A stretch of DNA of 64,000 bases from a virus (lineage: Duplodnaviria; Caudoviricetes), in IMG/VR virus record IMGVR_UViG_3300049988_000286, positions 96,001 to 160,000 of that record; one strand, 5' to 3'. The position numbers and the translations under genes are program-made. Position 1 is the stretch's first letter, and the number at the start of each line of letters is the position of its first letter. Below the pieces are notes generated by a model that was given only the letters and a program-made list of their open reading frames with translations, did not search any database and was not told where the DNA came from. Below are positions 8,515-58,589 of the stretch, one piece after another.

Positions 8515-8904
8515 TCAGATCAGGTCTGCTGCCGTGACATGTATAGGGACGGCGGACGCGATAGAGCCTATAATTTCAAGGCTCGCCTTCCAAGACTTAT
8601 CGCTGTCGGCCCACTCGGCGTGGACCTGTGTCTCACGCTTTCCTAACGCCCGAAAGACCACAGGCTCCTCGATACCGGGCATGTCGGGGATCGGCGAAAG
8701 GATGCGGGCGAGAGGGAGAGCAAAGGTGATATAATCGTCACCGTTGTCTTCGATATTCTCGGCATAATAATCGCTGACTTCTTCTATAGCCCAATAACTG
8801 GTCGGGTTAATGCCATCCCGAAGAATTGCTTCGAGGTTCTGTTTCGGGGTGACATGGTAAAGCACTTGTGACGCGCTCTCCACGAGTTTGATCCAATTTC
8901 GCAT
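8515..8904 (-). CDS. putative ADP-ribosyltransferase-fold protein with N-terminal tag
   Basis: LYHVTPKQNLEAILRDGI start typical of DarT/Tpt1-like ART folds; TAAATA 5 nt upstream; MRNWIKLVE. Confidence 0.55.
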   Translation of the reverse strand: MRNWIKLVESASQVLYHVTPKQNLEAILRDGINPTSYWAIEEVSDYYAENIEDNGDDYITFALPLARILSPIPDMPGIEEPVVFRALGKRETQVHAEWADSDKSWKASLEIIGSIASAVPIHVTAADLI

Positions 8905-8967
8905 CCCCCTATTTAGGGGCGCGCCCCGCCAAACGGTGGGAGATCGAACGAACGCTTGCCGCGACTG

Positions 8968-9813
8968 TCATAGGAGGTGGTAGACCCGATAACCCCACGA
9001 CATCCCCAGCGTGAACATCGTCATATCCTCCCGAGACAGGAGAACCATGTTGCCCTCGATGTGGTATCTCTCCACTCCGAGTTCCTTGAGCAGCTTGGGG
9101 ATTTGATTCTTGAGTACCTGTGCGCCTCGTGCCGACGACGCGAACGCACCCGCGACTGGCGTTGGGATCACTTCAACTACCGCCCGGTAGGGATGGAGGT
9201 CATCGGACTTGATCCGGTTAGCCAATCCCCTGAACGCCGTCATGCGCCGACCCTTCATCTTCGACGGTCCGCTCAATTTCGCCATCAGATCGATGGTGGT
9301 GAGCCATTCCGGATGTGGGGTGATGGTCTCTACGACAGTGCCATCGAGATCGACCACGACGATCCGCACCACCGGCATCGGCCGCTTGGAATACTGGCGA
9401 AAATTGATGCGGATAATGTTCTGCTCCGCGCCAACGAGATTGGTGTGATGCAGCGCTCCATTGAAGTCACGCTCACTCCAGAAGCGCGTTGGTTGGGTCT
9501 CGTTAGTGCCCCACCAGAGCAATCCCTCCTCGTTCTCGACATAGTATTCGTGCGCAACCTCTCCGGCATCGAGCAGAGTGGCGTCGTGCAACTGCGAGGC
9601 ATCGACGAAGAGGTCCGCGTCCTTGAAACGCTTGCGCCGGGCACGCAGCCTTCCTTCCTCACGCCCAATGATCTTGATGCCGATCGTCCCCGATCCACGG
9701 CGAGGATAAGGGAGATGAACTTCGGTCCCGGCTGGCACGACGTGCGTCCCGGATGTCACTGCTGAATTGAGGAGCCAAGTCGAACCCTTGGTGAAACGAC
9801 GAATATCAATCAT
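8968..9813 (-). CDS. hypothetical protein (281 aa)
   Basis: Long ORF; C-terminal LLSREDMTMFTL is a weak match to the small-protein family motif. Confidence 0.65.
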   Translation of the reverse strand: MIDIRRFTKGSTWLLNSAVTSGTHVVPAGTEVHLPYPRRGSGTIGIKIIGREEGRLRARRKRFKDADLFVDASQLHDATLLDAGEVAHEYYVENEEGLLWWGTNETQPTRFWSERDFNGALHHTNLVGAEQNIIRINFRQYSKRPMPVVRIVVVDLDGTVVETITPHPEWLTTIDLMAKLSGPSKMKGRRMTAFRGLANRIKSDDLHPYRAVVEVIPTPVAGAFASSARGAQVLKNQIPKLLKELGVERYHIEGNMVLLSREDMTMFTLGMSWGYRVYHLL

Positions 9814-10072
9814 CAGCGATTTCCAGCTTTACGCGGCGGGCATGAGAGTAGGTGGTGGACAGTCGGAAGATCGCACGGTTGGCCTCAACCTCTTCCTTGG
9901 TCTCGCCGCGATAGATCACCATGTCCATCGAGGCGATTATGGCGACCCGGCACCATATGAGTTCTCGGGGGTGATCTGCGCACAGATTGTGAAAAATGTC
10001 GGCGGTATGGTGGCGATCTTCGTCCAGCATCTCTGTGGCGCGGCTAACCGCTACGGCATAATAATCATCCAT
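9806..10072 (-). CDS. hypothetical protein
   Basis: ORF overlapping both neighbours in an operon-like array. Confidence 0.6.
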   Translation of the reverse strand: MDDYYAVAVSRATEMLDEDRHHTADIFHNLCADHPRELIWCRVAIIASMDMVIYRGETKEEVEANRAIFRLSTTYSHARRVKLEIADD

Positions 10073-10334
10073 AGGCGATACTGGCTTCGCTCACGGCGGT
10101 ATATTGGTTCGCGAGACGGAACATGGTGCGGAGGTATTCGTGTTCCTCGGTCGGGGAACCGTAGGCTACCAATGTTTTGTCACTGCTGGATGAGAGTTGA
10201 CAGATCAAGCATGCATGGGTGCGGTCAATCACGACTAGGTTGTCGAAGAGATCGAACGAGCAAACCTCCGACAGTAGTTGGGCGGGATGCTTGAACGATA
10301 ACCCGATGACGACGGTGGAGACAGGGTTAGTCAT
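10065..10334 (-). CDS. hypothetical protein
   Basis: ATG 10334 after GGAGA, immediately downstream of the tRNA. Confidence 0.6.
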   Translation of the reverse strand: MTNPVSTVVIGLSFKHPAQLLSEVCSFDLFDNLVVIDRTHACLICQLSSSSDKTLVAYGSPTEEHEYLRTMFRLANQYTAVSEASIAYG

Positions 10335-10350
10335 GTCGTCTCCAAAAGGG

Positions 10351-10425
10351 TGGTGGGAATACTCGGATTCGAACCGAGGACACACGGTTTTAGGGACCGC
10401 TGTTCTACCGCTGAACTATACTCCC
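10351..10425 (-). tRNA. tRNA with CUA (amber) anticodon, atypical C33
   Basis: GGGAGTA-TA-GTTC-AGCGGTA-GAAC-A-GCGGT-CCCTAAA-ACCGT-GTGTC-CTCGG-TTCGAAT-CCGAG-TATTCCC-A-CCA; clean cloverleaf. Confidence 0.9.
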
Positions 10426-10434
10426 GATGTTGCC

Positions 10435-10463
10435 GAACTATCGCAAGAGATTCGGTTGGTCAA
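10435..10463 (-). promoter_or_regulatory. sigma70-like promoter of the tRNA (TTGACC-N17-TAGTTC)
   Basis: -10 element ends 10 nt upstream of the tRNA 5' end. Confidence 0.55.
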
Positions 10464-10486
10464 GAGATTTCTCGACATAGTTCGAC

Positions 10487-10515
10487 TTGACCGAGAAAGC
10501 GATCTCGACTATCCT
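10487..10515 (+). promoter_or_regulatory. sigma70-like promoter (TTGACC-N17-TATCCT), divergent from the tRNA promoter
   Basis: Exact 17-nt spacing; ATG 10523 follows 7 nt later. Confidence 0.55.
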
Positions 10516-10522
10516 GACAAAC

Positions 10523-11005
10523 ATGGAAATCGAAACTCCCTCTTACTGGGTCGCGGTTGGCGCGCACGGTGCGCAGCCCTACGCTGATGGCACGCACGTC
10601 GATGTCCATCTGCGGGCAGTGGTGGAGATACTCGTCAGCTTCAACTTCTGCGCACAGTTCTGGATCGACGCTGGGTGGCTCCACGACACCGATGAGGATA
10701 CCGCCTTCAAGGTAGCGCAGACCCGTCTGCGTTTCGGCGACATGACGGCCGACCTCGTATGGGCGGTCACGGGCGTGGGCGACAATCGTCGCGAGCGCAA
10801 TGCATCCATCTACGAGAAGATCGCCGCCTTTCCGCGCGCCGCCATTCTCAAGACCGCCGACCGGATCGCCAACCTGCGGTCCTCGAAGGTCCACGCACCG
10901 TCGCTGTTCCGCATGTACCAGAAGGAGGCCTCGACCTTCGTCCCGGCGGTGCGCGATCACATCCCAGAGGAGATGCTTGCGGCCTTGATGGAAGCCCATC
11001 AGTGA
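10523..11005 (+). CDS. HD-domain hydrolase, RelA/SpoT (Mesh1-like small alarmone hydrolase) type
   Basis: AH.AQ, HLRAV, AGWLHDTDEDT, ILKTADRIANLR. Confidence 0.8.
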   Translation: MEIETPSYWVAVGAHGAQPYADGTHVDVHLRAVVEILVSFNFCAQFWIDAGWLHDTDEDTAFKVAQTRLRFGDMTADLVWAVTGVGDNRRERNASIYEKIAAFPRAAILKTADRIANLRSSKVHAPSLFRMYQKEASTFVPAVRDHIPEEMLAALMEAHQ

Positions 11006-12305: not shown

Positions 12306-12501
12306 CAGATATTCCCTTGATAATGATCATTGATGAATTGGTAGACGAGCGTGTGACCGCAGTCACAGAGATCATCCGCTCGTCTTCCGAAATGAGTGCG
12401 GGGACGGTTGATCTCGCACGATACGGCGTGATCCATATTCGCAACAAAGCAGCGCGCGGCCTGAACACGATCTTTGCGCTCCTCCCGCGCTCGCTCCTCG
12501 G

Positions 12502-12759
12502 TCATGCCGCCACCTTGGCGTCACGCTCGGCCTCCCACTGATGCTGCGCCTCGACGCGAGCCTCGACGAGTTCCGCGAGCATGTGGCGCGCATCCCGGCG
12601 CAGATACTCGCGAGTCATCTGGAGGCGACCCTGCTCCGGCTGCGCGGCGGTTTTCATCTTTGCCTTGGTGTCGCGGATGGTCTGGCTCAACTCCTTGTAG
12701 GCGAGCTTCCAGTTGCGGCGGTAGGCGAGATAGGTGGTGCGGTCGTTGAAAGCGTTCAT
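12502..12759 (-). CDS. hypothetical coiled-coil protein
   Basis: RBS GAGGA; paralog of the 11769-12305 N-terminus. Confidence 0.7.
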   Translation of the reverse strand: MNAFNDRTTYLAYRRNWKLAYKELSQTIRDTKAKMKTAAQPEQGRLQMTREYLRRDARHMLAELVEARVEAQHQWEAERDAKVAA

Positions 12760-13954: not shown

Positions 13955-14641
13955 TCAGCGTCGAACCAAAAACTCTTTGCAGTTGAGCGAATTGGTCAAC
14001 CACACGATCCTATCTCGATCGATCTCCTCGTTGAGCACCTTACCGCGCCGCCGCGTTTCTTCGTTGCGCTCGATCAAGTCATCGTTCCAAGAGGTGATCT
14101 CATCCCTGATATCGTCGCCATCGGTGATGAAGTTACGATGGCGGTCATAGATGTTGTAGTACTGGGGTGCTGATTTGTTCTTGACGTAATGCCGCCCCAT
14201 ATAGGTAGTGTAGCCGATGCGATCATAGGCATCGACGAGACGATCTATCTCTTTGTCGGTCAGGATGTCGCGAAAGTATGATTCGAAACCCGGCCCATGG
14301 TTGCGCCAACCTGCGAAACCTTCCGCTACGCGACGATCACTGGTCCATGAATTCAAGACACCGGTCTTCCAGCCCTCATAGCCGGTATCGAGCGCGAGAC
14401 CCCGGTAGAGGGTCACCACAACAGGAAGGCGAGCCCGCACGGGAGCGAACGCTGCATCGATCTCCTGCCAGACAGCATCTTGAGCGATGAAATGCTTTTC
14501 GAGAGCGCCTCCCGTCCAGTTTGCGGCTTCCCACTGCTGAATGGCGCGCTGCGCATCAGAGCCGAGTGTCGCCTTCGCACGCTTCGCCAAGGCGAAAACA
14601 TCACTCGGCGTGGCGCGCTCAAAGAGATCACAGGCACGCAT
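13955..14641 (-). CDS. putative ADP-ribosyltransferase (R-S-E clade)
   Basis: TLYRGL ... NSWTSD ... KEFLV; start MRACDLFE overlaps the upstream stop (TGATG). Confidence 0.6.
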   Translation of the reverse strand: MRACDLFERATPSDVFALAKRAKATLGSDAQRAIQQWEAANWTGGALEKHFIAQDAVWQEIDAAFAPVRARLPVVVTLYRGLALDTGYEGWKTGVLNSWTSDRRVAEGFAGWRNHGPGFESYFRDILTDKEIDRLVDAYDRIGYTTYMGRHYVKNKSAPQYYNIYDRHRNFITDGDDIRDEITSWNDDLIERNEETRRRGKVLNEEIDRDRIVWLTNSLNCKEFLVRR

Positions 14642-15084
14642 CAGCGAGGCACTACACGGTAGACGAGGCGCAACTTGGCGCGATTGGCTCCAAGGGTGTT
14701 GTGCCAGTCGCCATCCCGGAAGGAGATGGCGTGACCCTGCCGCTGCGCGTGAATGGATGCGTAGAGGTGCACGTCGGGATCGTTCTCGCGCAACCACACG
14801 GCGCTCTGGTTGACGGTCATGCCGCCGGGACGGATATGGGGATGGCACCACGGCATCTTGTAATAGCCATCAAGACGGTAGCCGAGTTGCGTGAAGATTT
14901 GGCTGGTCTGGATGGGAGTCAGGCCATTCCGACCAAAGAAGGGTTTGGCCACTTCCCAGACTTCATTCCAAGTCCTGCCAGTCAAGTTGGAGACAGCGAT
15001 AATCGCGCACGAGCCGATGTCGCGGGCTTGTTCGGGAGAGAAGGTGCCGCGAGTGCTGGCCTCGAAGAGGTCATGTAGGAGCAT
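14641..15084 (-). CDS. tagged protein, possible papain-like Cys/His domain
   Basis: MLLHDLFE; GSCAIIAV...GHAISFRDG; TAAATA 5 nt upstream. Confidence 0.5.
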   Translation of the reverse strand: MLLHDLFEASTRGTFSPEQARDIGSCAIIAVSNLTGRTWNEVWEVAKPFFGRNGLTPIQTSQIFTQLGYRLDGYYKMPWCHPHIRPGGMTVNQSAVWLRENDPDVHLYASIHAQRQGHAISFRDGDWHNTLGANRAKLRLVYRVVPR

Positions 15085-15089
15085 AGGCC

Positions 15090-15105
15090 TATTTAGGCCT
15101 AAATA
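15090..15105. promoter_or_regulatory. perfect palindrome TATTTAGGCCTAAATA: back-to-back TAAATA boxes
   Basis: Serves the divergent ATGs at 15084 (-) and 15110 (+). Confidence 0.75.
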
Positions 15106-15109: not shown

Positions 15110-15718
15110 ATGAGAGAGTTGATCGATTTGATGGAAGACGGCGCACGCGACGACGTTCGCGCATTTTCACGAGACTTCAACGATCCCGCGATCGACCAGC
15201 GTGTTCAGCAGCAAGCCGCCCGCAAGAACCCCAAGTGGAAGAAGAGCCTCACCGCGCTCATGACCAAGCACGGCTTCAGCCTGATTGGCGCGGGGATCAA
15301 TGGCGCAGTGTTCCAAAACGCCGCCTACCCCTTTGTCCTCAAGGTCTATCGCAACGATCGCACCTACGATGAGTGGCTGCATTTTGCCCGCACGAACCGC
15401 GCCAATTCCTTGGTGCCACGGATCAAGGGGCAGCCGCGCCGCCTCAACGGCATCTTCTCCGTAGTGCGCCTCGAACTCCTTCAATCGTGCAATGTCGCGC
15501 TCGCCAACAAACTCGTGGACGAGATTCAAGAAGATATGGTGAGTTATGAGCGCGTGGCGGATTCCGAGAACCCAGATCGCCGTGCTGTTGCAAACTTCCT
15601 CCGAGATTGGGAACCCGCCTTTGACCTCTCGGCCCACAATGTCATGCAGCGTCCGAACGGCGAGATGGTGATCGTCGATCCCCTCTACCTCGAACCCGGC
15701 CGCGAGATCGACTGGTAG
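15110..15718 (+). CDS. protein-kinase-like protein 1
   Basis: LIGAGINGAVF, VLKVY, DLSAHNVM, VIVDP. Confidence 0.7.
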   Translation: MRELIDLMEDGARDDVRAFSRDFNDPAIDQRVQQQAARKNPKWKKSLTALMTKHGFSLIGAGINGAVFQNAAYPFVLKVYRNDRTYDEWLHFARTNRANSLVPRIKGQPRRLNGIFSVVRLELLQSCNVALANKLVDEIQEDMVSYERVADSENPDRRAVANFLRDWEPAFDLSAHNVMQRPNGEMVIVDPLYLEPGREIDW

Positions 15719-17379: not shown

Positions 17380-17402
17380 ACGAGGCGAGCGATAAATACT
17401 CG

Positions 17403-17936
17403 ATGAGGATATTCGAGCTATCGCGCCCCGACGTTCAAGAAGATGTTGCCCCAATCCTCGCGCGCGGCGGCTGGTCGATATATGGCGAAGGATATTACGC
17501 GCAAGTTTATGGTAGGGATGACAAAGATTACGTCTTGAAGGTCTTCGATTACCGAGATCGCGGCTACGCCGAGTTCCTCAAGCTTGTTGCCACCAACGCC
17601 AATCCGCACTTTCCAAAGATCATCGGTAAGCCGATCAAGATAACCTCGGGGTATTGGGCCGTCCGGATGGAGAAGCTCACGCCAGCGCCAGAGGCACTTC
17701 AAATCGGCATCTATCTCTCAACTCGCGATAATGGACCCAACCCGCGAAACTCACTCCAGATAGCAGCGCACGAACAGATCATGGAGTTGTTCGAGAGCCA
17801 GCCGTTGTTGAAGGATGCACTCGACTTGATAATCGACAACATCCTTCACAACAGTAGCATCGGGGCAGACCTCCACAAGGAAAACGTCATGAAGCGCTCC
17901 GATGGCACTCTGGTGATAATCGATCCGGTAAACTGA
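17403..17936 (+). CDS. protein-kinase-like protein 2
   Basis: YGEGYYAQVY, VLKVF, DLHKENVM, VIIDP; TAAATA 4 nt upstream. Confidence 0.75.
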   Translation: MRIFELSRPDVQEDVAPILARGGWSIYGEGYYAQVYGRDDKDYVLKVFDYRDRGYAEFLKLVATNANPHFPKIIGKPIKITSGYWAVRMEKLTPAPEALQIGIYLSTRDNGPNPRNSLQIAAHEQIMELFESQPLLKDALDLIIDNILHNSSIGADLHKENVMKRSDGTLVIIDPVN

Positions 17937-18536: not shown

Positions 18537-19124
18537 GTGAGTCATACCAACGATGTGCCGGGCCAGCCCCCGCGTAAACTCTCTGCCCGCAATCTCGCCG
18601 GATCGAGCGCAGACCGTCCCAAAGAGGATTTCTACCCAACTCCGCCCGAAGCCGTCCTTGCCCTTTTGGCAGAAGAGACCTTCGAGGGATCGATCTGGGA
18701 AAACAGTTGCGGGGATGGTGCGATCTGTCGGGTGCTCGAAGAGGCCGGATACCGCGATATCATCGCGACTGACCTCATCGATCGCGGTTACGGTGAAGCC
18801 CCGCACGACTTCCTCACCTCGACGCTAACCGCAGACAACGTGGTGATGAACCCGCCCTTCTCGATGGCGCAGCAATTCGTTGAGCTATCTCTTGCTCGCA
18901 CCACGGGTAAGGTAGCGATGTTGGGGAAGCTGGTTTTCCTAGAGGGTCAGAAGAGGAAGGCGTTCTTCACACAGACACCGCTGCGCACCGTCTATGTCTT
19001 CAGCAAGCGGGTCAACTTCTACCGCAATGGGGAGCGGGGTAATTACTCGACCTCCACGATGGCATTCGCGTGGTTCGTTTTCGAACATGGCTACACGGGT
19101 GAGCCGACGATCAAGTGGATATAG
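18537..19124 (+). CDS. phage SAM-dependent (N6-adenine-type) methyltransferase
   Basis: DFYPTP, WENSCGDG, ATDL, VMNPPF. Confidence 0.8.
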   Translation: MSHTNDVPGQPPRKLSARNLAGSSADRPKEDFYPTPPEAVLALLAEETFEGSIWENSCGDGAICRVLEEAGYRDIIATDLIDRGYGEAPHDFLTSTLTADNVVMNPPFSMAQQFVELSLARTTGKVAMLGKLVFLEGQKRKAFFTQTPLRTVYVFSKRVNFYRNGERGNYSTSTMAFAWFVFEHGYTGEPTIKWI

Positions 19125-19136
19125 GTTAAATACTTG

Positions 19137-19727
19137 ATGAAGGATTGGATCAACCTCGTCGAGCGTGCCGCCAACGGTGACGCAAATATCCGCCACGCAG
19201 CGGAAATCCTCCACGCCCATATGGTGCACGGACGCGCGCAGGATTGGCAGTACGAGAAGCTGCTGACCCTCCTTCCCCGCCCCGCGCAGGGCGCGACCCT
19301 CTATCGTGCAGAGCCGATGCTCGTGGAGGATATCGAGCGTCTCGATCAGGGTATCCGCTCGCCGATCAAGTCGCACTTCTTCTCATGGACGAAGGACGCG
19401 TCTTCGCTCAAGACGATCGCAATCGAAGTCAAGATGAATGCCCACACACTTCGCGATACGGGCAAACCGTTCAAGATCGTAGTGATCAAGAAGAACTTCC
19501 CCGCAGAGCAGATCGTCGTCGATCTGAACCAATTCCGACACAACTACCCCGATTCATTGACCCCGGATATGATGCGCGACCTAGCTATCCATTTCAACGA
19601 AGAGGAAGTCCTCGTCCTTGAGCGCGATCGTGTCATGAACCGACAGAACACGGTGGTGCTCAAGGATTCGATGACCAACCGGATCAAGGCCATGTTGGGT
19701 ATGAGTAACTCGGCGGTTAATGTCTAA
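19137..19727 (+). CDS. putative ADP-ribosyltransferase (R-S-E clade)
   Basis: TLYRAE ... FSWTKD ... NEEEVLV; MKDWINLVE; TAAATA 4 nt upstream. Confidence 0.6.
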   Translation: MKDWINLVERAANGDANIRHAAEILHAHMVHGRAQDWQYEKLLTLLPRPAQGATLYRAEPMLVEDIERLDQGIRSPIKSHFFSWTKDASSLKTIAIEVKMNAHTLRDTGKPFKIVVIKKNFPAEQIVVDLNQFRHNYPDSLTPDMMRDLAIHFNEEEVLVLERDRVMNRQNTVVLKDSMTNRIKAMLGMSNSAVNV

Positions 19728-19750
19728 TTGGTCAATCGTCTAAATAGGTG

Positions 19751-20890
19751 ATGCGAGACATTATCGATATCATCACGGAAGCGGCACTGACAGAAGGTGG
19801 CGTGGAGAAGATTTCTATTCGGAACGGGATGCCGTTTTCTGTTTATCAGAATCCCAGCCGAGCAGTCGTGGTCAATATGGGACCATCGATGGAGTTTCGT
19901 GGCGTTATCGCCGACGACGATCTCTATATCTGGGACGCCTTCGACGGAACACATGACGATGTTGCCCAAGAATTGATAATCGATTGGCAGATCGAGTTCA
20001 AAGTCAAGGATAACAAGGTTGATAACGAGGAGGCCTTGGCGCATCGTCGCTTTCGACGTGCATTCGGTGATGGCATCGAGGCTGTGCTTGAGGAAATGCC
20101 CATCCAGTCCATCACGCGGCTCGGCGACTGGGACAAGTCATCGTCGTTCCGCGACGGTAAGGATCGCAAACTCCTGACATCGGAGAAGGCCATTCAGAAG
20201 ATGAAGGCGATGTGGAAATACCCCGATGAGGTAGATTACAACATCCTGCTGATCAACAACGCGGAGGCGAACCGCCACACCGAAGTGGGCGTCGTTCCTC
20301 GCGATAAACTTGCCAGCATGTTCCCGAAAACGATTTCCGCGATCGAGCCGCTGCTCCGCGACGATCAGGTCAACATCATCTTCACGAACAACAAGGGGGC
20401 GGCGCGCGTTCCCCTCACCGGCTGGGTAATGGCTCACCGCTTCGGTCACGCCATGCAGCGCTTCGGCACCAGCTACTATTTCGATGAGGCGGTCAAGGAG
20501 TTGGACAAAGCATTGGGTGAACTGATGGTCCACTACGGCGCTCGCCCGAACGACAAGGCGACGTTCCGCCGACCCTCCGCGCTCAACTCCACCAATTCGC
20601 GTGGTCTCCTCCATGCTCTGTGCACCTTCCGATCCGCGCGCGAGAAGAAATTGCGCAACTCGATGGAAGCCGTGCACGAATTGTTTGCCCAATACATCTT
20701 CACCGGTCGGATCAAATTCAACCCCATCCCCCGCCATTACCAGTATGGAGCGGTCAACTACACGTTCCGGGGCGATGAGGAGGATTATGAAGCGGAACAT
20801 GATCTCTTTGCCGATACCGTGATCTACAATCTCGAAAATTATTTCGAGACCGCGATCCACAACGTTGTCGGAAAAGTGCTGGTGATGTAA
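19751..20890 (+). CDS. tagged hypothetical protein (379 aa)
   Basis: MRDIIDIITEAALTE; AHRFGH motif; TAAATA 4 nt upstream. Confidence 0.7.
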   Translation: MRDIIDIITEAALTEGGVEKISIRNGMPFSVYQNPSRAVVVNMGPSMEFRGVIADDDLYIWDAFDGTHDDVAQELIIDWQIEFKVKDNKVDNEEALAHRRFRRAFGDGIEAVLEEMPIQSITRLGDWDKSSSFRDGKDRKLLTSEKAIQKMKAMWKYPDEVDYNILLINNAEANRHTEVGVVPRDKLASMFPKTISAIEPLLRDDQVNIIFTNNKGAARVPLTGWVMAHRFGHAMQRFGTSYYFDEAVKELDKALGELMVHYGARPNDKATFRRPSALNSTNSRGLLHALCTFRSAREKKLRNSMEAVHELFAQYIFTGRIKFNPIPRHYQYGAVNYTFRGDEEDYEAEHDLFADTVIYNLENYFETAIHNVVGKVLVM

Positions 20891-25419: not shown

Positions 25420-26238
25420 TTATCCCGAATAGCCGATCTTCGACAATACCGTATAGAGGCCGCGCATCGCTTTGTCGGTGGTGGGCTTGACCGTCGCGGC
25501 CATCCGGGGATTGTGATAGAAATAATTGATTTCCGTGTCCGCGCTCCGGATAAGGGGGAAGTCCTCGAAGCCATATCCGGCATTGCTGCCAGTCTTCATC
25601 TCGATCCAGATACCGAGACGCAGTGCTCGCCCCGATCCATGATTGACGTTCTGCAATCCCACTTCCTGCACGCTGTCCCGATATTCCTTCTTCCACAGGG
25701 TCATGAAGGGAGGACTACCATCCTTCTCAAGGATGGGGAGATCGCCGATGTGGGTCAGTGAGGCCAAGCGGTCGAATTGTTTCCAGCCGTGGAACTCATC
25801 CTCGGATGCCGGTGTGAGGCGCGTCTCGCGGGTGCGCCGCTTGCGCGCTGCCCAGAAGGCCTTGGCCTCGCTCGACTGCGCCTGTAGCGCGGCATCACCA
25901 ATCGAACCATCGGCGGGGTGGACGATGTAACCATGGGCTTCAAGGTGGTCGAGCATCGCGGTGTAGAGGCCGAACCTCTTAAATTGATCTTCCACCACCG
26001 ATTTATACGGCACGACGTTCATACCGTTTGCTCCCGCGATCTGCGGACCCTCCGGGATGACCAAGGTCTGCGCTACCTTCTCACGCGCGGGCCGGAAGAT
26101 GTTCTCTAAAGCGACGTAGGCTTCGCACAGCACGCCGCCGTGGGCGGGTCGATGGCTGATGTAGAAGACAGGGCCGCGCTCATCGTAGCGGCTATAGGCT
26201 TTGAGGGTGGATCGTTCTAGAAGCTGGGTGGCACGCAT
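25420..26238 (-). CDS. tagged protein with GNAT acetyltransferase-like N-domain
   Basis: MRATQLLE; KRFGLYTAMLDHL...QSSEAKAFW; TAAATA 4 nt upstream. Confidence 0.55.
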   Translation of the reverse strand: MRATQLLERSTLKAYSRYDERGPVFYISHRPAHGGVLCEAYVALENIFRPAREKVAQTLVIPEGPQIAGANGMNVVPYKSVVEDQFKRFGLYTAMLDHLEAHGYIVHPADGSIGDAALQAQSSEAKAFWAARKRRTRETRLTPASEDEFHGWKQFDRLASLTHIGDLPILEKDGSPPFMTLWKKEYRDSVQEVGLQNVNHGSGRALRLGIWIEMKTGSNAGYGFEDFPLIRSADTEINYFYHNPRMAATVKPTTDKAMRGLYTVLSKIGYSG

Positions 26239-26517
26239 CGCATATTTATTCGCGCCACCACAGCAAATGCTCGCCATCGAAATTGTCGCGGACGAGGACG
26301 AAGATGGGTTGCGAGGCGTCGCTACGGATGAAGTGCGTGACTTCGGTGGAGAGACGCTGGGGCGAGCAATTATCCAGACCGACAATCTCGTAGCCGGGAC
26401 CGAGTTGTAGCTGGATATTAGGCGCATGGGTGCTGCGCATCACGAGCGGTTTGCCTCCGAGGAGACGCGTGACCGTTTCCTTGATGTCAGAGGCGTCGCG
26501 AAGTAGTGCGAAGTCAA

Positions 26518-29177: not shown

Positions 29178-29189
29178 TCTAAATAGTCG

Positions 29190-29402
29190 ATGAGAAACTG
29201 GATTGATCTGATGAGCGAGAATGCCCTCACCCCCCATGATGTGATGTTTCGTCGGCATCAGCGTGAAGGTGCGGCCAAGCATCTAGCCGACTATGGCCAA
29301 CAGCTTACTCTCGACGACTTCATGAACATGCGCTACGGGCAGCCCGAAGATGAGGCGCAAGCCGACTACGATCACTTCGTGAGCACTGGTGAGATTCGTT
29401 AA
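29190..29402 (+). CDS. small tagged protein
   Basis: MRNWIDLMSE; TAAATA 4 nt upstream. Confidence 0.65.
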   Translation: MRNWIDLMSENALTPHDVMFRRHQREGAAKHLADYGQQLTLDDFMNMRYGQPEDEAQADYDHFVSTGEIR

Positions 29403-29405: not shown

Positions 29406-29792
29406 ATGCTGCTACGAGACCTCATGGAACGCCGCGATACCACAACCGACTGGGGGTATTGGATCACACCGTTGGGTGCCTATTACCCCGTAGGTTCGCA
29501 CGGTCACGAAGCCTATATTCGCAAAGAAGAAGGTATGACCTCCGGTCAGGCGATGATCCGGGGCTGGGTCCGAGTGGTGACCGCCAACATGTTTCAGGTC
29601 GAGGCGTGCTTTGATCTCCTGTCATCGCGTGCCAAGGCGACGATGGTCCGGCTAGCCCGTCAGGGCGACTATCATCAGTTCGTCGCTGACGTTTATCGCG
29701 ATGACGGGCAGTATAGCGTCAACCGCTACGCGATCCTGCACGATTTTCTGCGCGGGATCGAGGCATTGTCTCACGCTAGCGAGACGGTCTGA
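29406..29792 (+). CDS. small tagged protein
   Basis: MLLRDLMER; 3 nt after the previous stop. Confidence 0.65.
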   Translation: MLLRDLMERRDTTTDWGYWITPLGAYYPVGSHGHEAYIRKEEGMTSGQAMIRGWVRVVTANMFQVEACFDLLSSRAKATMVRLARQGDYHQFVADVYRDDGQYSVNRYAILHDFLRGIEALSHASETV

Positions 29793-47565: not shown

Positions 47566-48000
47566 TCAATGGGGGCGGGTAAACCCACGCAGCTTGATTG
47601 GCGGATTGGGATCGCGCTTCATCCGAAAGCCGTTTTTCGCATCGCCGAAACCGGTCACGAAACCGAAGCGCTGATACCACTCGACCAGTTTCTTGGTCGG
47701 AGTATCCGCGTACCCGTAAGCCAGCAGTGACAGGGGGACATTGAGTTCATCAGCGATCTCACATATCGCCTTGAGCGCCACGGTGCCGCTACCCTTGGTC
47801 AGCGAGTCCATGGAGTTGATGTGCACCTCCTGATTGCCCCGACTGGGCTGGCAGTGGACCGAACAGTCATGCACGATGAAGGCTTTGGGATCGAGGGGGT
47901 GATCGCGTGAAATAGCCTCAAGGCGCTTGAAGAAGTTTTCGACGGGTGATCCCTCAATTGGCACGCCGCTCAACTTGAGGATTGTCTCTAGCAAATCCAT
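47566..48000 (-). CDS. GNAT acetyltransferase-like tagged protein
   Basis: KGSGTVALKAICEIADE...LVEWYQRFGF; TAAATA 4 nt upstream. Confidence 0.7.
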   Translation of the reverse strand: MDLLETILKLSGVPIEGSPVENFFKRLEAISRDHPLDPKAFIVHDCSVHCQPSRGNQEVHINSMDSLTKGSGTVALKAICEIADELNVPLSLLAYGYADTPTKKLVEWYQRFGFVTGFGDAKNGFRMKRDPNPPIKLRGFTRPH

Positions 48001-48015
48001 GTGGTATTTAGTGTT

Positions 48016-48558
48016 ATGGAGTCACCCCGTTTCACGCTTGTCGATCCAGTGACAGGTCTGTACTGGACCCAGAATCTCCCGGCTGATGTTTTCTGGGGTA
48101 AAGACGCAGCGGCCGATTGGATACCACGTTTCCAAGGTAACCCTCACTTCGAATATAGCGAAGGACGAATCAAACTTCTGTGGAACCGATACGAGCATGT
48201 GCGCCGCCGTCGCGGTGATTCCACAATCCCGGAACTCATGCTGGAACCCCACGTCGTCATCGTGAAAGCGATGCCCCGCCGCGCGCTGGTACTCGAACCC
48301 TTTGAATCATTCTGCCTCACCGTCAATCGCGCGCATGGGCATGTGCTCACTACCGCGATCACGAAAGTGTGCGAGCACGCTCCCCTGTACGCGATCAAGC
48401 GCCGAGGGAGGACCAAAGCTGTCGCCGATGTGCTCCCTGACACAATCCTCCACGAAGGCATGTATCTCTTCTGCTTCAACGAAGACGATCTCGCGTTGGC
48501 CAAGATCGCGCTTGGGGCTAACATCGCACAGACTTATGATTTGCGGGACTATCGATGA
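48016..48558 (+). CDS. hypothetical protein
   Basis: C-terminal FCFNEDDLALAKI. Confidence 0.6.
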   Translation: MESPRFTLVDPVTGLYWTQNLPADVFWGKDAAADWIPRFQGNPHFEYSEGRIKLLWNRYEHVRRRRGDSTIPELMLEPHVVIVKAMPRRALVLEPFESFCLTVNRAHGHVLTTAITKVCEHAPLYAIKRRGRTKAVADVLPDTILHEGMYLFCFNEDDLALAKIALGANIAQTYDLRDYR

Positions 48559-48965
48559 TCATCTCTTTGCGTGAGACGCCCTTCCGTTATGTGAATTGGG
48601 GCAAGACCATGGGCGAGAGTATGGCTCGCTCTTGGATGCATACTCGCGCCCGCGATGCCCTGTATGATCTTGGCATCTATTATCGCTTCATCGGTTATGG
48701 CTTCCATTCGTTTGGGGGTACGGTTGTAAATCCATACTGTCTATACTTCGTTGATATCATTGATCCCGATGAGACTACATTGACGCTCCTCGCGCTCTCG
48801 ATAAAGATCGAGACTAATGTAGCGCTTGATTCGTCGCAAGCGGTTTGTCAGCTTTCCGAATTTGCTTATCGCCAGCGTTCCGGCGTTGGAGCCGACGAGC
48901 GGGAATGGGAAGCCGCTCTATCCAATCCTCCAGTTCGCAAAGTGATTAAGCATTGTTGTGAATAA
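48555..48965 (+). CDS. hypothetical protein (lower GC)
   Basis: ATGA overlap. Confidence 0.55.
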   Translation: MIISLRETPFRYVNWGKTMGESMARSWMHTRARDALYDLGIYYRFIGYGFHSFGGTVVNPYCLYFVDIIDPDETTLTLLALSIKIETNVALDSSQAVCQLSEFAYRQRSGVGADEREWEAALSNPPVRKVIKHCCE

Positions 48966-52813: not shown

Positions 52814-53085
52814 TGGCGACCTTCTACGTCATCCGCTTCGCACGAACCGTTTCCGCGAGCGAGTTGTTCGGTCACATCAAGCCGGGCGTCCATGGCGATT
52901 ACGCTATCATCGAAGCGGGGTGTTACTGGGGCTCGGGCATCGATCCGAGTACCTTCAACGTTTCGTTTGATAAAGCCCGATTTTTCACCAAGGCCGAAGC
53001 GGAGCGTCGCTTTGCAAACCTTGCTATCGACTATCCCGCCGATGTTGCGGCGATCCTTCCCGTGCAGGTGGAGGAACCGGCATGA
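52810..53085 (+). CDS. hypothetical protein
   Basis: GTGA overlap. Confidence 0.55.
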   Translation: MMATFYVIRFARTVSASELFGHIKPGVHGDYAIIEAGCYWGSGIDPSTFNVSFDKARFFTKAEAERRFANLAIDYPADVAAILPVQVEEPA

Positions 53086-53915
53086 AGATCGCTGCCGTCC
53101 TCGTCGAGCGCGATGATATCCACGACTACATGATGGGCCTGTGGCAGTCCGATGTCTTTCGAGCGTCGCACCTCGCGGGCACTTTCGTGCATGAACAGGT
53201 GGAGCGGTTCGCGTGGCTGCCGCGTGTCTTCGCAACAACCACGAACGACTACCTTGAGCGCAGTCATTTCTGCACGTGGTGGAATGTCGTGATGCTTCGC
53301 GACGGCTACACCAATCCGATCATCCACGACCTCTACTACCTGCATGAGATGGCTCATGCGGCGACGATGCCGTATCTGCGCGATATCTCCATGACTGCGT
53401 GGTCGGAGAAGATGCAGCGCAACGAACTCGAAGCTAGCGTCTTGTCCGAGATCGCGGTCTACTTCGAGATGCCCGGCCTTCGCGAGTGCAGCTTCCCGCA
53501 TCCCATCTACGCCGATCGCTTCCTGCTCGATCCCGACATGCGCGATCTGTGGTCGGCCAACCCCGCAGCGGCGATCGACACGCTGCGCACCATGCGGCGC
53601 GAGGTCATGACCGGGCGGAACGATCTGCTGCTCGATGATGCGGAGCGCTGGATCAGACGGTTCGCCGACCAGAACGCCGCATGGGCGGTGTCGTGGTCGC
53701 ACCGCTACCTCGATGTCGAGAACTTCATGGCGGCATTCCGCCCTTTGGCGGCGCGCAACCGGGCAGAGGCGGCGGCGCAACACGTTGCGTGGATCGGCGC
53801 AGAAGCGGCGCGAGACCCCGTGGACCTCATTCCCTTCCGGGATGAGGCAGAATTGTTTTCGCCCTTCTACTGGACGAATAAGCGGCGTTATGAGGCTGCG
53901 ATGCAGGAAAGGTGA
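53082..53915 (+). CDS. HExxH-motif protein
   Basis: DLYYLHEMAHAA...NELEASV. Confidence 0.6.
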   Translation: MKIAAVLVERDDIHDYMMGLWQSDVFRASHLAGTFVHEQVERFAWLPRVFATTTNDYLERSHFCTWWNVVMLRDGYTNPIIHDLYYLHEMAHAATMPYLRDISMTAWSEKMQRNELEASVLSEIAVYFEMPGLRECSFPHPIYADRFLLDPDMRDLWSANPAAAIDTLRTMRREVMTGRNDLLLDDAERWIRRFADQNAAWAVSWSHRYLDVENFMAAFRPLAARNRAEAAAQHVAWIGAEAARDPVDLIPFRDEAELFSPFYWTNKRRYEAAMQER

Positions 53916-53930
53916 TCCGCTAAATACGGG

Positions 53931-55631
53931 ATGCGCGATCTCCTCAATATCCTGAACGAAACCTCCCTCCTCACCGAGTCCCGCAAGGACTATGAATCGA
54001 TGATCAACCCGGTGCTGGATGCACTGGGGAAGCCCACGGGCGAGGGGAGCAAGATCGCTGTTGATGTCAACGCGACGCTTCGTGACAAGATCATCAAGCG
54101 TTGGGGGGAGATCGTTGCGGAGGCGATGAAGACGCTCAAGAAGGCGGATCGTGTCACATGGTTCCTCCGCGCCATGCGCATCGGTATGGTGGGATCATAT
54201 GCGAAGCATCTTGATCCGGTCCGAACAAGTAAGATGGTGCGCGACTTCGAGGCTCGCTCTGGCACGCCGTTCGATCAGGATCACTTCCCCCTGATGGCAG
54301 CCCTGCCGGAATTGGAGCACTTCCTCTCCCTCCCCATCCCAGAGATCGCCAACTACCAGTTTCGCTTTCAGTCATGGACTGAAATCCACTCCACCTTCGT
54401 GGCGGCGGAGAGCCGGTGGAAGTCCACGGTCGAGAACAGCTTCGTCGATGATGATTGCAAGACGATCATCGATTTCAAGAACGGCTGGTTCTGGGTCAAC
54501 ACCGAGCGGGCATCCTGCGACAAAGAGTCACAGGCGATGGGGCATTGTGGCAACTCACCGCGCTCACGCAGCGATGATCAGCTATTGAGCCTTCGCAAGA
54601 AGATCATGGTGGGAGATCAGGCTCGCTGGGAGCCGCACCTGACGTTCATCCTCGCCCGTGATGGGTTCCTGACCGAGATGAAGGGTCGGAACAACGACAA
54701 GCCAGTCGAGAAATACCATAAGATGATCGTCGCCCTGTTGGCCGATCCGATCATCAAAGGTATTCGTGGTGGAGGTTATTTGCCGCAAAACAACTTCTCG
54801 ATGGATGATCTGGACGCTGGTCTGCGGAACAAGCTGATCGAAGAGAAACCCGAACTCGGCTCAACATGGAACCTGTATGAGAAGTACGGTCTCACTGATG
54901 CGGTCTTTGATCGCGTTTGTGAACGACTGCGGACCCACGGGTTGGAGGAGCCGCACGAATTCGATGCCGACACGGGAACCATCGTAATATTCGATGGGAC
55001 GCTTGCAAAATTTGCTGTGGGCGAACTTGATCTCGACTCCGATGTCGTCAATCTCGCGACCGGTGATCGTGACGAGATCGAATGGCTGGACACCAGCCCA
55101 GCGGAGGGTTTGCGCATCATCGAGGGGTTGGACGAAGACCCCGACACCGAGCACGACATCATCGGTCTCATTGCCAGCCTGATCCACCTCGACAAGGACC
55201 AAGCCATCGACGGTCTCCTCCACACATTCCCGAAGTCGGTCGCATCGATCTGGGACGAGGTGTGGGAACAGGTTCGCACCACGGCGCACGATCAACTCGT
55301 CTCATTCGTTGATAATCAGTCGTTTGACTACCGCGCCCTGATGGTCACGGTCACCGGTGACAACGTTCGCGTCACGGTAGACGCAGAGACTCTGATCAAC
55401 GATATCGCGTCTGTCATCGACAAGGACGAGAACATCGATGACGACAACAACTTCGAAGCGTCGGTACGATCAGGGCTGTGGTTTGAAAAGGACAGCTACG
55501 GCTATGACGCCGACCCGGAGGAGGCTAATGAGCCGAAGCTAGACGAGTACGAGGCAGAAGCGTTCCGCGCATTGTCTCGGCACATCCGAGGCCTGTTCGA
55601 CCACTCCGACCAGTTGGAATTCGGTTTCTGA
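53931..55631 (+). CDS. large tagged protein (566 aa), possible PcfJ-like central domain
   Basis: MRDLLNILNE; ESQAMGHCG...LSLR...PHLT...EMKGRNNDKP; TAAATA 4 nt upstream. Confidence 0.65.
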   Translation: MRDLLNILNETSLLTESRKDYESMINPVLDALGKPTGEGSKIAVDVNATLRDKIIKRWGEIVAEAMKTLKKADRVTWFLRAMRIGMVGSYAKHLDPVRTSKMVRDFEARSGTPFDQDHFPLMAALPELEHFLSLPIPEIANYQFRFQSWTEIHSTFVAAESRWKSTVENSFVDDDCKTIIDFKNGWFWVNTERASCDKESQAMGHCGNSPRSRSDDQLLSLRKKIMVGDQARWEPHLTFILARDGFLTEMKGRNNDKPVEKYHKMIVALLADPIIKGIRGGGYLPQNNFSMDDLDAGLRNKLIEEKPELGSTWNLYEKYGLTDAVFDRVCERLRTHGLEEPHEFDADTGTIVIFDGTLAKFAVGELDLDSDVVNLATGDRDEIEWLDTSPAEGLRIIEGLDEDPDTEHDIIGLIASLIHLDKDQAIDGLLHTFPKSVASIWDEVWEQVRTTAHDQLVSFVDNQSFDYRALMVTVTGDNVRVTVDAETLINDIASVIDKDENIDDDNNFEASVRSGLWFEKDSYGYDADPEEANEPKLDEYEAEAFRALSRHIRGLFDHSDQLEFGF

Positions 55632-56192: not shown

Positions 56193-56236
56193 TTGAATTC
56201 CTTTCGTGATCGTGATGCCGAACTATCCCCTGCGGG

Positions 56237-56698
56237 TCAAGCGACAAAATCATCCGCTCGCCGATACACGCCCTGTATCAACTCCTTACAGGTAAGGAGG
56301 TAGTTCATCATCGTGACATCGAAGCCCTCGAAGCACGGCAGTGAGAGATCGTTGGAACGGATGCGGTCGATGCGACTGCGCGGAATATTCTTGCGGTTGA
56401 GCGCCTCTCGCCACGCCGTCACCGAGGCCGGGTAATCGACATCGTGACGCTCGGTGCAGAATAGAAGCTCTCGCTCCACCGCTGCGAGGAGGGCGTGGTA
56501 ATCCGGAAGGGCGACGATCTCGAAACCATGCACCCCATCGCGCTCCTCAACCGGCTGCATGACGGTCACGCCGAAGTGCTCGACCAATGCCGTGTAGCTG
56601 GCCAACAAGGACTGGCTGCTCGGCAAACTGGGCTCCCAATAGAGGGAAACCCATTGCGGCTTGATGATCTGTCTGGCGTTCAGACTATTGAGCAGCAC
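56237..56698 (-). CDS. hypothetical protein
   Basis: 153-aa ORF. Confidence 0.5.
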   Translation of the reverse strand: MLLNSLNARQIIKPQWVSLYWEPSLPSSQSLLASYTALVEHFGVTVMQPVEERDGVHGFEIVALPDYHALLAAVERELLFCTERHDVDYPASVTAWREALNRKNIPRSRIDRIRSNDLSLPCFEGFDVTMMNYLLTCKELIQGVYRRADDFVA

Positions 56699-57200
56699 CG
56701 AACCACTCGGGCTTTAGTTCACGAAGCTGACGCAGCGACGATTCCGCCGATGTGTGGGTGATCCACAGACCACCAGCCTCCTCCCACGCCGCACGATGCT
56801 TCTCGCGATCGTCGATCAGGACATCGCCGGGCTGCATGTGGAGGCGCTTGTCCTTCGCCATGCAGGTGATCATTTTCGTATCCGGGAAGTGATGCTTCGC
56901 CCACGCCAGCTTGTCCGCTGGTGCCCAATCACCAAAGGGACAACCGGTCAGGATGATTGGATCGAGATGGCGCACACCCTCGTAGAGGACCATCGCATCG
57001 GGCATCAGCGGCAGGGCGCGGAAGAACCCCTGCCCCTCCGGGCAGCGATAGTGCCGAAGCTCTCGCCAGAACGCCTTCGACTTGAACTTGGCCTCGTACT
57101 CACCCGAGGGCATTCCGAGGATTTGCTCTGCGAGTGTATCGAAATCGGCGAGGACACCATCGCAATCGATGAAGATTTGAGGAGGGTGGGTAGTAGTCAT
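56685..57200 (-). CDS. HAD-family 5'(3')-deoxyribonucleotidase-like
   Basis: FIDCDGVLADF, ILTG, K..W..HHF, LIDD. Confidence 0.85.
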   Translation of the reverse strand: MTTTHPPQIFIDCDGVLADFDTLAEQILGMPSGEYEAKFKSKAFWRELRHYRCPEGQGFFRALPLMPDAMVLYEGVRHLDPIILTGCPFGDWAPADKLAWAKHHFPDTKMITCMAKDKRLHMQPGDVLIDDREKHRAAWEEAGGLWITHTSAESSLRQLRELKPEWFGAAQ

Positions 57201-57279
57201 GTGGTCTCCTTTACAGTAATGATTTCGTTTGTCAACGCTACAATATAGCGAAGCCGTGCAGCGTTCAGTATGATTGTGC

Positions 57280-58080
57280 ATGACCGGAACAGAAGTCCAG
57301 ATTGGCGATCACCGAATAACGCACGGCGAGTGCCTCGCCGTGATGGCCAAGATACCAGATCACAGCATCGACTTCGTTCTCTGCGATCCCCCTTTTGGAA
57401 CCATCAATTGGAAGTGCCCAGAGAAGTGGGACAATGTGATTCCTTTCTCTGATATGTGGTCTGCTTATTGGCGCGTCCTGAAGCCCAAGGGCGTTATCGC
57501 GCTATTCGGCAACGAACCCTTCTCTACGCTGCTCAAGGCGAGCCAACTCACCCGATACAAATACGACTACGTTTGGCGCAAGTCTCGTCCCGGTGGATTC
57601 GCGAACGCGAAGGTAAAACCTTTGAAGCAATATGAGTTGATTTCGATCTTCTCCGAGGGGACGACTTCACCGGGTCGGCCCAACAACATGCCCTATTACC
57701 CGCAAGGTTTGGTCCGCTGCGAAAAGAAGGTCAAGAACAGCGGCAACTCCCGTATCGGCTTCACCGTTCGTAACGGTAATCCGGCCGAGTACGTGCAGGA
57801 GTGGACCAACTATCCCGGCGATGTATTGGAATACGCGAACGAAAACGGCTTTCATCCCACGCAGAAGCCAGTCCCGTTGCTCGAACATCTGATCCGCACT
57901 TACTCAACGGAGGGCGGCATCGTCCTCGACAACACGATGGGGAGTGGCTCAACCGGCGTGGCGGCAGCAAAGAGTGGTAGGCGCTTCATCGGCATCGAGC
58001 AAGAGGAGAAGTATTTCGCCATCGCGGAGCAGAGGATCAGGGAGGCGTGCCCCGATCCCGATGATCTCATTCAGCTTTAG
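57280..58080 (+). CDS. DNA methyltransferase (N6/N4, beta class)
   Basis: DPPF, HPTQKP, VLDNTMGSGSTG, FIGIE. Confidence 0.93.
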   Translation: MTGTEVQIGDHRITHGECLAVMAKIPDHSIDFVLCDPPFGTINWKCPEKWDNVIPFSDMWSAYWRVLKPKGVIALFGNEPFSTLLKASQLTRYKYDYVWRKSRPGGFANAKVKPLKQYELISIFSEGTTSPGRPNNMPYYPQGLVRCEKKVKNSGNSRIGFTVRNGNPAEYVQEWTNYPGDVLEYANENGFHPTQKPVPLLEHLIRTYSTEGGIVLDNTMGSGSTGVAAAKSGRRFIGIEQEEKYFAIAEQRIREACPDPDDLIQL

Positions 58081-58589
58081 ACGATCTTGAGTAATGGGTG
58101 TTCGATCAAGTCGGTGAAGGGTCGCGCACCCTCCTCGGTCATGGCAATCGCGTGAGCGGCCTCGAAGGCCTCGCTCGTCATCTCGATCGAGGCGAGGAAG
58201 CGCGACAGCGGCGTGATCCCGCGATCGGTGATACAAAACTCTTCGGCCTCGGTTCTCACGGATACTGGGCGGGAACCTTCGCGCGATAGCGGCTGGTAGA
58301 AGTCGAATGGGCGGATGAAGAATCGCTGACGCAGCTTCTGCTGATCGATGACGAACACTACACCGCCCTTGGCCCACGTGCGAGCGAAGCGGGGGTTGCG
58401 GGTCAGCGATACACCACTGATGAGATTAGGGCGACCGGGCGCGAAATCGAAGCCGAGCCGTCGATAATTGTGCATCGTATGGGGGCGGAGCGTATCGGAG
58501 GCCAGAATCTGAACAGCGGTGGCGAGGGGAGCGCCATGATAGAGGTGAGCATCCCGCACCCCCTCTTCGATAATCTCGCTCCAACGCAT
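58077..58589 (-). CDS. putative ADP-ribosyltransferase-fold tagged protein
   Basis: MRWSEIIEE; LYHG...GVSLTRNPRFA...VFVIDQ...EAEE; TAAATA 4 nt upstream. Confidence 0.6.
   Translation of the reverse strand: MRWSEIIEEGVRDAHLYHGAPLATAVQILASDTLRPHTMHNYRRLGFDFAPGRPNLISGVSLTRNPRFARTWAKGGVVFVIDQQKLRQRFFIRPFDFYQPLSREGSRPVSVRTEAEEFCITDRGITPLSRFLASIEMTSEAFEAAHAIAMTEEGARPFTDLIEHPLLKIV

Follow-up and report, generated by a model that had tools for sequence, protein, structure and literature searches.

The window examined here is a stretch of 64,000 nucleotides of tailed-phage DNA, positions 96,001–160,000 of the 499,572-bp virus record IMGVR_UViG_3300049988_000286 (57% GC; 100% complete according to CheckV). 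Thirteen of its genes open with a tag, a peptide encoded by the first 5–10 codons and ending in glutamate, and ∼57 genes of the whole genome (8% of ∼683) are tagged in this way. These peptides are likely to be this phage's version of the capsid-targeting sequence (CTS) of bacteriophage T4, carried by proteins that are probably shipped into the host together with the DNA. The tag reads M-R-x-(W/F/L)-I-x-L-x-E or takes the variant forms MLLxDLFE, MRWxxIIxE and MRIFE; the genome-wide set is made up of a strict class, the MLLxDLFE class and shorter MR-type forms. All 13 N-termini listed in the initial annotation of the window were found where it had placed them. Eleven of the genes have a TAAATA box 4–5 nt before the ATG, and the other two (14641- and 29406+; genes of the window are named by start coordinate and strand) are coupled to a gene in front of them, as had also been claimed.

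Distribution and sequence of the tag

Of the ATGs that follow a TAAATA box, 24 carry the strict motif M[RK]x[WFLIYH][IL]x[LIM]x(x)E, compared with seven of the 6,209 remaining ATGs of the genome that are followed by 50 or more open codons. The seven all look like real genes that are either led by a Shine–Dalgarno (SD) sequence or coupled. A looser pattern, [LI]xE ending at residues 5–11, is present in 44 of the 82 box genes (54%) compared with 65 of 601 others (11%; odds ratio 9.5, p = 8e-18); internal control windows give a share of 6%. The expectation that the motif would be commoner after TAAATA than in other genes thus holds genome-wide. Class-C pattern matches were not counted as tags if they lack M-R or start in a tail-fibre-like manner (MAxKKINELT, MARKITDLP).

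When the 57 tags are aligned on their last residue, P1 is always Glu and P3 is Leu or Ile in 52; Ala occupies P1′ in 18 of the 57, compared with 9.5% in the proteome (p = 3e-6). The 31 class-A tags have W/F/L/I/Y/H at position 4 and L/I/M at position 7, and the eight-residue MLLxDLFE tags match the targeting positions of the CTS only if aligned from the Glu. Tagged proteins are small and mostly soluble and are missing from the 180–250 kb core region of the genome. Three weaker tag-like starts in the window, not among the 13 of the initial annotation, lack a TAAATA box and possibly belong to the same set: MIIDELVDE (12323–12541, plus strand), MIISLRE (48555–48965, plus strand) and MKIAAVLVE↓R (53082–53915, plus strand; here and below the arrow marks the end of the tag or a cut after Glu).

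The bodies behind the tag had been described as unrelated. By BLAST this is mostly so: an all-against-all comparison of ∼66 tagged proteins, made without their first 14 residues, yields eight small paralogue families, and in the window 15110+ and 17403+ form the sole related pair among the tagged genes (E = 1e-12). One family bears MLLSDLFE, MRWSEIIEE and MRTLIDLVE, and since the tag class varies within families the classes behave as equivalents. As judged from these comparisons the tag is portable, with one tag on BLAST-unrelated bodies and one body family with differing tags. The eight families could be taken to mean that the similarity of the N-termini arose by chance or by recent duplication of a single gene family. 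Such an origin is extremely improbable, given that the strict motif marks 31 N-termini and none of its matches among the 6,209 ATGs is spurious, that most bodies lack any BLAST similarity and that relatives within a family differ in tag class.

TAAATA boxes and gene starts

TAAATA occurs 17 times in the window where 4.7 occurrences are expected, a count reached in none of 100 shuffles. The genome contains 171 such boxes, 102 of which have an ATG 4–5 nt downstream. The box logo is (C/A)TAAATA-N3-G-ATG; nothing is conserved upstream of the box and there is no -35 element. The late promoter of T4, TATAAATA, is a gp55-dependent -10 element that also has no -35 element; only (C/A)TAAATA is kept here and the first two bases of the octamer are not. 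A homologue of gp55, the T4 late sigma factor, is encoded in the genome (phmmer E = 8e-7), and searches of the genome for T4 gp45 with phmmer and tblastn gave no match at E ≤ 0.01.

SD-like 4-mers precede two of the 82 box genes and 298 of the 601 other genes. Because the box lies 4–5 nt from the ATG and the SD sequence is absent, the mRNAs of box genes should, on this layout, be leaderless or nearly so. The spacing between box and ATG leaves no space for a ribosome-binding site, and ∼100 genes of this T4-related phage look leaderless.

The same spacing and the same scarcity of SD sequences, together with a modest lean of the tag codons towards A-ending synonyms (AGA, CGA, CTA, GAA), could be accommodated by a signal in the nucleic acid, i.e. 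an initial transcribed region or 'downstream box' used in the translation of leaderless mRNAs, with the peptide as a by-product. We consider this very unlikely. The amino acids are kept through many synonymous codons (Arg by five codons and Leu by six), nine tagged genes in the genome have no box, 35 box genes have no tag, and in relatives of 31–45% GC the same peptide is encoded after an SD site. By the variety of synonymous codons and the occurrence of tags behind ordinary SD sites in relatives, the signal sits in the protein and not in the DNA.

Thirteen box–ATG sites lie between 8910 and 58599 of the window. Untagged box genes of the window start at 18537+ (with GTG), 28428+ and 34905-. 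At 15090–15105 (TATTTAGGCCTAAATA) two divergent putative late promoters stand back to back and serve the 15084- and 15110+ genes, each promoter being fused to its own ATG; further divergent pairs of this kind are found at genome positions 43815/43816, 63171/63176 and 173187/173212. A perfect 4-bp inverted repeat directly flanks TAAATA at ten of 103 box–ATG sites, compared with 0.5% of random positions. The repeats are cccc/GGGG, ggcc/GGCC, cacc/GGTG and gtcc/GGAC, and the case in the window is at 8910–8915 (cccc TAAATA GGGG).

Head module and predicted T4-type processing

In T4, gp21 cleaves after Glu in L/I-x-E; the first ten residues of the internal protein IPIII are enough for encapsidation, and its residues 4 and 7 matter for targeting while residues 8 and 10 matter for processing (PMC9026906). 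In the T4 record IPII and IPIII start with MKTYQEFIAE↓A and IPI starts with MKTFKEF...ITE↓A. Like the T4 CTS, the form MRNWINLITE↓A of the present phage is basic at position 2, aromatic at 4 and hydrophobic at 7, with Ile as residue 8, Glu as residue 10 and Ala next to the cut.

The genome carries a T4-type head module at 208–219 kb with a portal, an S77 prohead protease, a scaffold-like protein and a gp23-type major capsid protein (PF07068, 243 bits); the genes for the scaffold-like protein (g278) and the capsid protein adjoin that of the protease. The protease (g277, genome 213874–214494; PF03420, 92 bits at 213946–214356) retains the catalytic His (GELDHP) and Ser (SSRG) when aligned to T4 gp21 (5JBL), and probably keeps the L/I-x-E specificity. 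Residue 16 of mature T4 gp23 aligns with residue 54 of the phage capsid protein. Since the start of mature gp23 maps beside SLME50↓AASS, the capsid maturation site is predicted to be at or near this point, where LME↓A resembles the tags.

All six of the consecutive head-module proteins g275–g280 (genome 212461–218697) start with [LI]xE within 11 residues (MTLNE, MKSILE, MSHIPLTE, MPKTIEEILNE, MNLFE and MTLRE), compared with a background of 6%. The six include the protease, the scaffold and the capsid protein, and T4 head-core proteins begin likewise; the N-termini of the T4 proteins are MEGLIE (gp67), MLLIPE (gp68), MNEPQLLIE (gp21), MLKEQLIAE (gp22), MAKINELLRE (gp24), MELITE (Alt) and MIDKDYIAE (Inh).

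ADP-ribosyltransferase-fold family of 58589-

The 58589- gene (58077–58589, minus strand; 170 aa; MRWSEIIE↓E; TAAATA at 58594–58599) encodes a body with the fold of ADP-ribosyltransferases (ART) of the DarT/Tpt1/PARP-like kind. In its AlphaFold2 model (mean pLDDT 78.5) the tag forms a helix (residues 3–11) that is separate from the fold, the first strand of which spans residues 15–20, and structural alignments from the Atlas begin at residues 7–12. DarT and Tpt1/KptA account for all of the top 20 PDB matches, at probabilities of 0.89–1.0 but E values of ∼0.01–0.04. The ART features of the family, an NAD-binding His on the hhHG[ST] strand (His18) and an acidic cluster (E114/E116/E117), are all invariant. 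The model and these residues support an ART fold for the body, which is a predicted enzyme.

A word-index search for homologues of 58589- found one relative, and an exhaustive profile search was needed to reveal the family, which comprises 1,492 representative clusters. Among the top 150 members, 121 of the 129 standalone proteins contain [LIVMFY]xE in residues 1–14, compared with a background of ∼21%. The tags of the family come in several flavours, among them T4-like (MKTFAQFIAE, MKTFQQFITE, MFTFKEFITE; n = 25), MLLxDLFE-like (n = 24), MRWxEI..E (n = 24) and MRxWIxL (n = 5). T4-flavoured members continue, for example, as MKTFAQFIAE↓GRDAP. One of them is encoded between the T4 gp14 and gp15 genes, beside gp13/gp17/gp18, with an adjoining second copy that starts MKTFGQFLAE; another T4-like contig encodes four ART-family proteins (MKTYREFISE, MYTFRDFVTE, MFTFKEFIEE and MFTFKEFITE). 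Going by the profile matches, the same ART body wears the canonical T4 CTS in T4-like contigs and an MR- or ML-type tag here and in jumbo-phage contigs.

Some relatives of the family form chains of up to eight units in the metagenomic proteins P0003 (2,290 aa), P0007, P0010 and P0011. In P0003 an [LI]xE precedes every unit, directly ahead of GRDA[PS] and an L/V-Y/F-H motif, and the protein looks like a polyprotein with a putative prohead-protease site ahead of each unit.

Tags in related phages

The entire sequence of the phage is contained in a single sequencing run, a leaf metagenome; the run search returned no RNA run that contains it, and megablast of the window against the phage collection returned no matches. 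The isolates most similar in capsid protein are Sinorhizobium phage Phosso (66%) and the Rak2/121Q group of jumbo phages. Five IMG/VR fragments of 31–44% GC encode proteins that start with MR[DN]WI[DN]L[LFV]E, and most of these starts have an SD-like sequence in front. Four of the five have many core genes in common with the phage at 40–60% identity (tblastn), and these four represent 10–19% of genomes of ∼350–390 kb (CheckV). A jumbo-type contig of 38% GC carries the full T4-type promoter fused to the ATG (TATAAATA-GTCGG-ATG), followed by MRDWINIINE.

Homologues of individual tagged genes of the window are also tagged elsewhere. The orthologue of 17403+ in a related jumbo fragment starts with MKINE↓L, and its kinase-like homologues in the T4-like rhizobiophage RHph_I1_18 start with KSFSEHIAE↓S and MISFKSHLNE↓S. 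In the cultured Salicola phage SCTP-2 the 53931+ homologue (gene 31) starts with MRLNNLFE↓S and has neighbours that are tagged too. Tagged genes are 31, 33 and 36 in SCTP-2 and EVB91_002 and EVB91_003 in RHph_I1_18. SCTP-2 and RHph_I1_18 both encode an S77 protease, and their tags follow SD sites. A variable-gap tag scan also gave out-of-frame matches and was useful only for SCTP-2 (37 matches compared with seven in the control). For the cultured relatives Phosso, 121Q, Hallingskeid, Vibrio 2.275.O and RaK2, pattern scans either found no tag or gave counts near those of the control. A 171-aa open reading frame of Phosso (241144–241659) starts with MRASELFE and directly follows the 'scaffolding protein' gene in the head module; it is the only clear tag-like start noticed in that phage. 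A virion proteome of a tag-bearing relative, including the SCTP-2 virion, was not found in the literature. None of the three packed enzymes named in the XacN1 paper has a clear tag, and the PA5oct paper does not mention late promoters or processing.

A short amphipathic helix outside the folded domain, as modelled for 58589-, could be a docking module for a partner other than the capsid, such as a chaperone, a membrane or secretion factor, a regulator or a degradation adaptor. This is an unlikely role for the tag: it leaves unexplained the obligatory Glu followed by Ala, the match to the T4 CTS, the presence of the motif on the phage's own head-core proteins and the co-occurrence of tag and S77 protease in the phages checked. 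Lu11 gp208 provides a single case of the converse, being a homologue with no tag in a phage with no S77 match.

Tagged genes of the window and their bodies

The 8904- gene (8515–8904, minus strand; 129 aa; MRNWIKLVE↓S; TAAATA at 8910–8915) encodes a protein that has no Pfam or PHROG match and carries an LYHVT motif five residues past the tag, an ART-like lead only. The ART label assigned to window genes at the outset is supported by fold for 58589- and by a motif for 8904-. The 14641- gene (13955–14641, minus strand; 228 aa; MRACDLFE↓R) is not preceded by a box, and its ATG overlaps with the stop of the tagged 15084- gene (14641–15084, minus strand; 147 aa; MLLHDLFE↓A; TAAATA at 15090–15095), an arrangement of translational coupling.

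On the other side of the divergent promoters, the 15110+ gene (15110–15718, plus strand; 202 aa; MRELIDLME↓D) has a kinase-like body (phrog_15752, protein kinase, E = 3e-8). Its paralogue 17403+ (17403–17936, plus strand; 177 aa; TAAATA at 17393–17398) has the short tag MRIFE↓L and a body that matches a phage protein-kinase PHROG at E ∼ 1e-8; the kinase label is supported for both. The bodies of 19137+ (19137–19727, plus strand; 196 aa; MKDWINLVE↓R; TAAATA at 19127–19132) and 26238- (25420–26238, minus strand; 272 aa; MRATQLLE↓R; TAAATA at 26243–26248) have no Pfam or PHROG assignment.

The 19751+ gene (19751–20890, plus strand; 379 aa; TAAATA at 19741–19746) carries the ten-residue form MRDIIDIITE↓A, the register of which equals that of T4 MKTYQEFIAE↓A, and has a paralogue at genome position 448067. 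The protease-like label proposed for the window was rejected for this protein, which contains no HExxH and gave only weak language-model leads to zincins. The 29190+ gene (29190–29402, plus strand; 70 aa; MRNWIDLMSE↓N; TAAATA at 29180–29185) is followed by 29406+ (29406–29792, plus strand; 128 aa; MLLRDLME↓R), which has no box of its own, starts 4 nt past the end of 29190+ and is coupled to it. The 48000- gene (47566–48000, minus strand; 144 aa; TAAATA at 48005–48010) has the short tag MDLLE↓T; the GNAT label is weakly suggested by weak matches to its paralogues elsewhere in the genome. The product of 53931+ (53931–55631, plus strand; 566 aa; MRDLLNILNE↓T; TAAATA at 53921–53926) has a PcfJ-like central domain and two tagged paralogues in the genome.

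Across the genome, a Pfam search with 64 tagged proteins gave only two matches above the cut-off, a parvovirus-type phospholipase A2 (PLA2)-like protein and one GNAT. Below the cut-off are ART-PolyVal (near it), Kinase-PolyVal (well below it) and two further weak GNAT matches; PHROGs add only the two kinase-like proteins. The PLA2-like protein (genome 401958–402305, minus strand; 116 aa) is tagged with MRSRHLFE↓A and matches PF08398 at 30.8 bits. A paralogue family that continues with (A)RSNPxLN right after the tag (MRYHNLVEARRNPDLN, MNTFRELIEARSNPEL, MRAIQIIEARSNPALN) is found at genome positions 43826+, 178297-, 456221-, 244197–246953 and 459812+. Small, soluble bodies that are almost all blank in Pfam fit the profile of putative delivered effectors.

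Proposed function

In the proposed mechanism, each tagged gene would be a self-contained late unit made up of a gp55-type (C/A)TAAATA promoter, an ATG and the tag. During prohead assembly the short amphipathic tag helix would bind the gp22-like scaffold core and carry the attached protein inside. The gp21-type S77 protease would then cut (L/I)-x-E behind its Glu, with Ala as the commonest next residue, freeing the mature protein among the DNA, and the freed proteins would be ejected into the next host together with the genome. There the ART-fold, kinase-like, GNAT and PLA2-like proteins and the many orphans may serve, ready-made, in taking over the host or countering its defences. With the tag sitting right behind the promoter, any gene that the phage acquires could be sent to the head, which would explain the ∼57 tagged genes. 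The initial annotation had suggested a capsid-targeting propeptide, cleaved after Glu, on late genes. The comparative tests (the S77 protease, LME↓A, gp55, the likeness to the T4 CTS, Ala at P1′ and the ART family) all support this suggestion; from them we infer packaging, cleavage after Glu, scaffold binding, late timing and ejection into the host.

Several points weigh against this function. The phage has not been cultured and its only source is a leaf metagenome, so that packaging and cleavage are read from sequence, and the late expression of the tagged genes is likewise deduced from their promoters. Some 57 kinds of packaged protein would be far above the handful of T4 and would make an unprecedented number of cargoes. 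The tagged proteins are no more basic than the remaining proteins of the phage, so the basicity expected of packaged proteins is not borne out. Among the capsid-closest cultured relatives, the scans of Phosso, 121Q and RaK2 found few tags or none. In the ART family the Glu lies at a fixed distance of 8–9 residues before the catalytic His and could count as part of the domain. Finally, nine tags (of the MRIFE and MDLLE kind) have only five residues, and thus contain the cleavage motif without the determinants at positions 4 and 7.

The five-residue tags are also in keeping with the possibility that the peptide is only a cap to be removed by a protease, keeping dangerous enzymes inactive or marking them for trimming by the prohead protease or another Glu-specific protease, while entry into the head, if it occurs, is by other means. 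In favour of such an account, the invariant part of the tag is just (L/I)xE, and the multi-copy ART proteins have [LI]xE↓GRDAP before each unit and no full tag. The long forms conserve positions 2, 4, 5 and 7, which is beyond the needs of cleavage, and these positions target IPIII in T4; moreover, gp21-type proteases work inside proheads, so their substrate must be there. A cap that is not a targeting signal is therefore improbable, and targeting to the head followed by cleavage is the reading that we prefer.

More tentatively, and with rather more doubt than belief, we suggest that this phage and its uncultured relatives use promoter, leaderless ATG and tag as a plug-and-play cassette derived from the T4 capsid-targeting principle, with which ∼57 different proteins would be loaded into the head. 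No phage would then have a larger predicted set of effectors delivered by the virion; the set could be read from sequence, and tag variants would track the scaffold of each phage.

If the tags target proteins to the head, the proteins injected by this uncultured 500-kb phage and by its relatives could be listed with a simple rule, namely an N-terminal peptide of at most ten residues that ends in (L/I)xE, applied to genomes encoding an S77 protease. The listed proteins, mostly orphans, would be the first place to look for new activities in host take-over and counter-defence, and the combination of promoter and tag would show how a phage recruits new cargo. The T4 CTS is already in use for the packaging of foreign proteins, and its range would be extended to diverged tags and other hosts. 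Independently of packaging, the analysis brings to light a large ART-fold family of likely internal proteins and ∼100 apparently leaderless late genes.

Comparison with known systems

Among phiKZ-like phages (phiKZ, 201phi2-1 and SPN3US), dozens of head-internal proteins are cut after Glu by a homologue of gp21 (PMC9026906). Their ejection and inner-body proteins resemble the tagged proteins in having a three-residue motif, a cut after Glu, a gp21-related protease and delivery to the host. They differ in their cleavage at S/A-x-E, for which the long propeptides often contain several internal sites; a short shared N-terminal tag has not been described for them, and they belong to another phage lineage.

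Polyvalent-protein domains are thought to enter the host along with the DNA (PMC7824862), and the domains found here overlap with them (ART-PolyVal, Kinase-PolyVal and GNAT, at the levels given above). The present proteins are separate and small, each with its own promoter and tag, and are not parts of one giant polypeptide, although some ART-family relatives do form chains. A broad review of jumbo-phage genomics makes no mention of a modular CTS (PMC7824862).

The closest parallel is T4. For T-even phages it is established that diverse internal proteins carry a modular CTS (PMC3012670, PMC9026906). IPI, IPII, IPIII and Alt share with the tagged proteins an N-terminal peptide of ∼10 residues that ends in (L/I)-x-E, usually followed by Ala, on unrelated and fast-evolving bodies, and gp21-, gp22- and gp23-type head genes and a putative late promoter with TAAATA are present here as well. 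The two systems differ in several respects. The consensus here has diverged (MRxWIxLxE, MLLxDLFE); the tagged genes number ∼57, as opposed to a handful in T4, and the packaging of their products is predicted; they are single units scattered over a 500-kb genome of the Rak2 group; and their promoter lies 4–5 nt from the ATG with no SD sequence, whereas the T4 ip genes are SD-led. Taken together, these similarities and differences indicate that the tag system of this phage is most likely a diverged and greatly expanded form of the known T4-type CTS.

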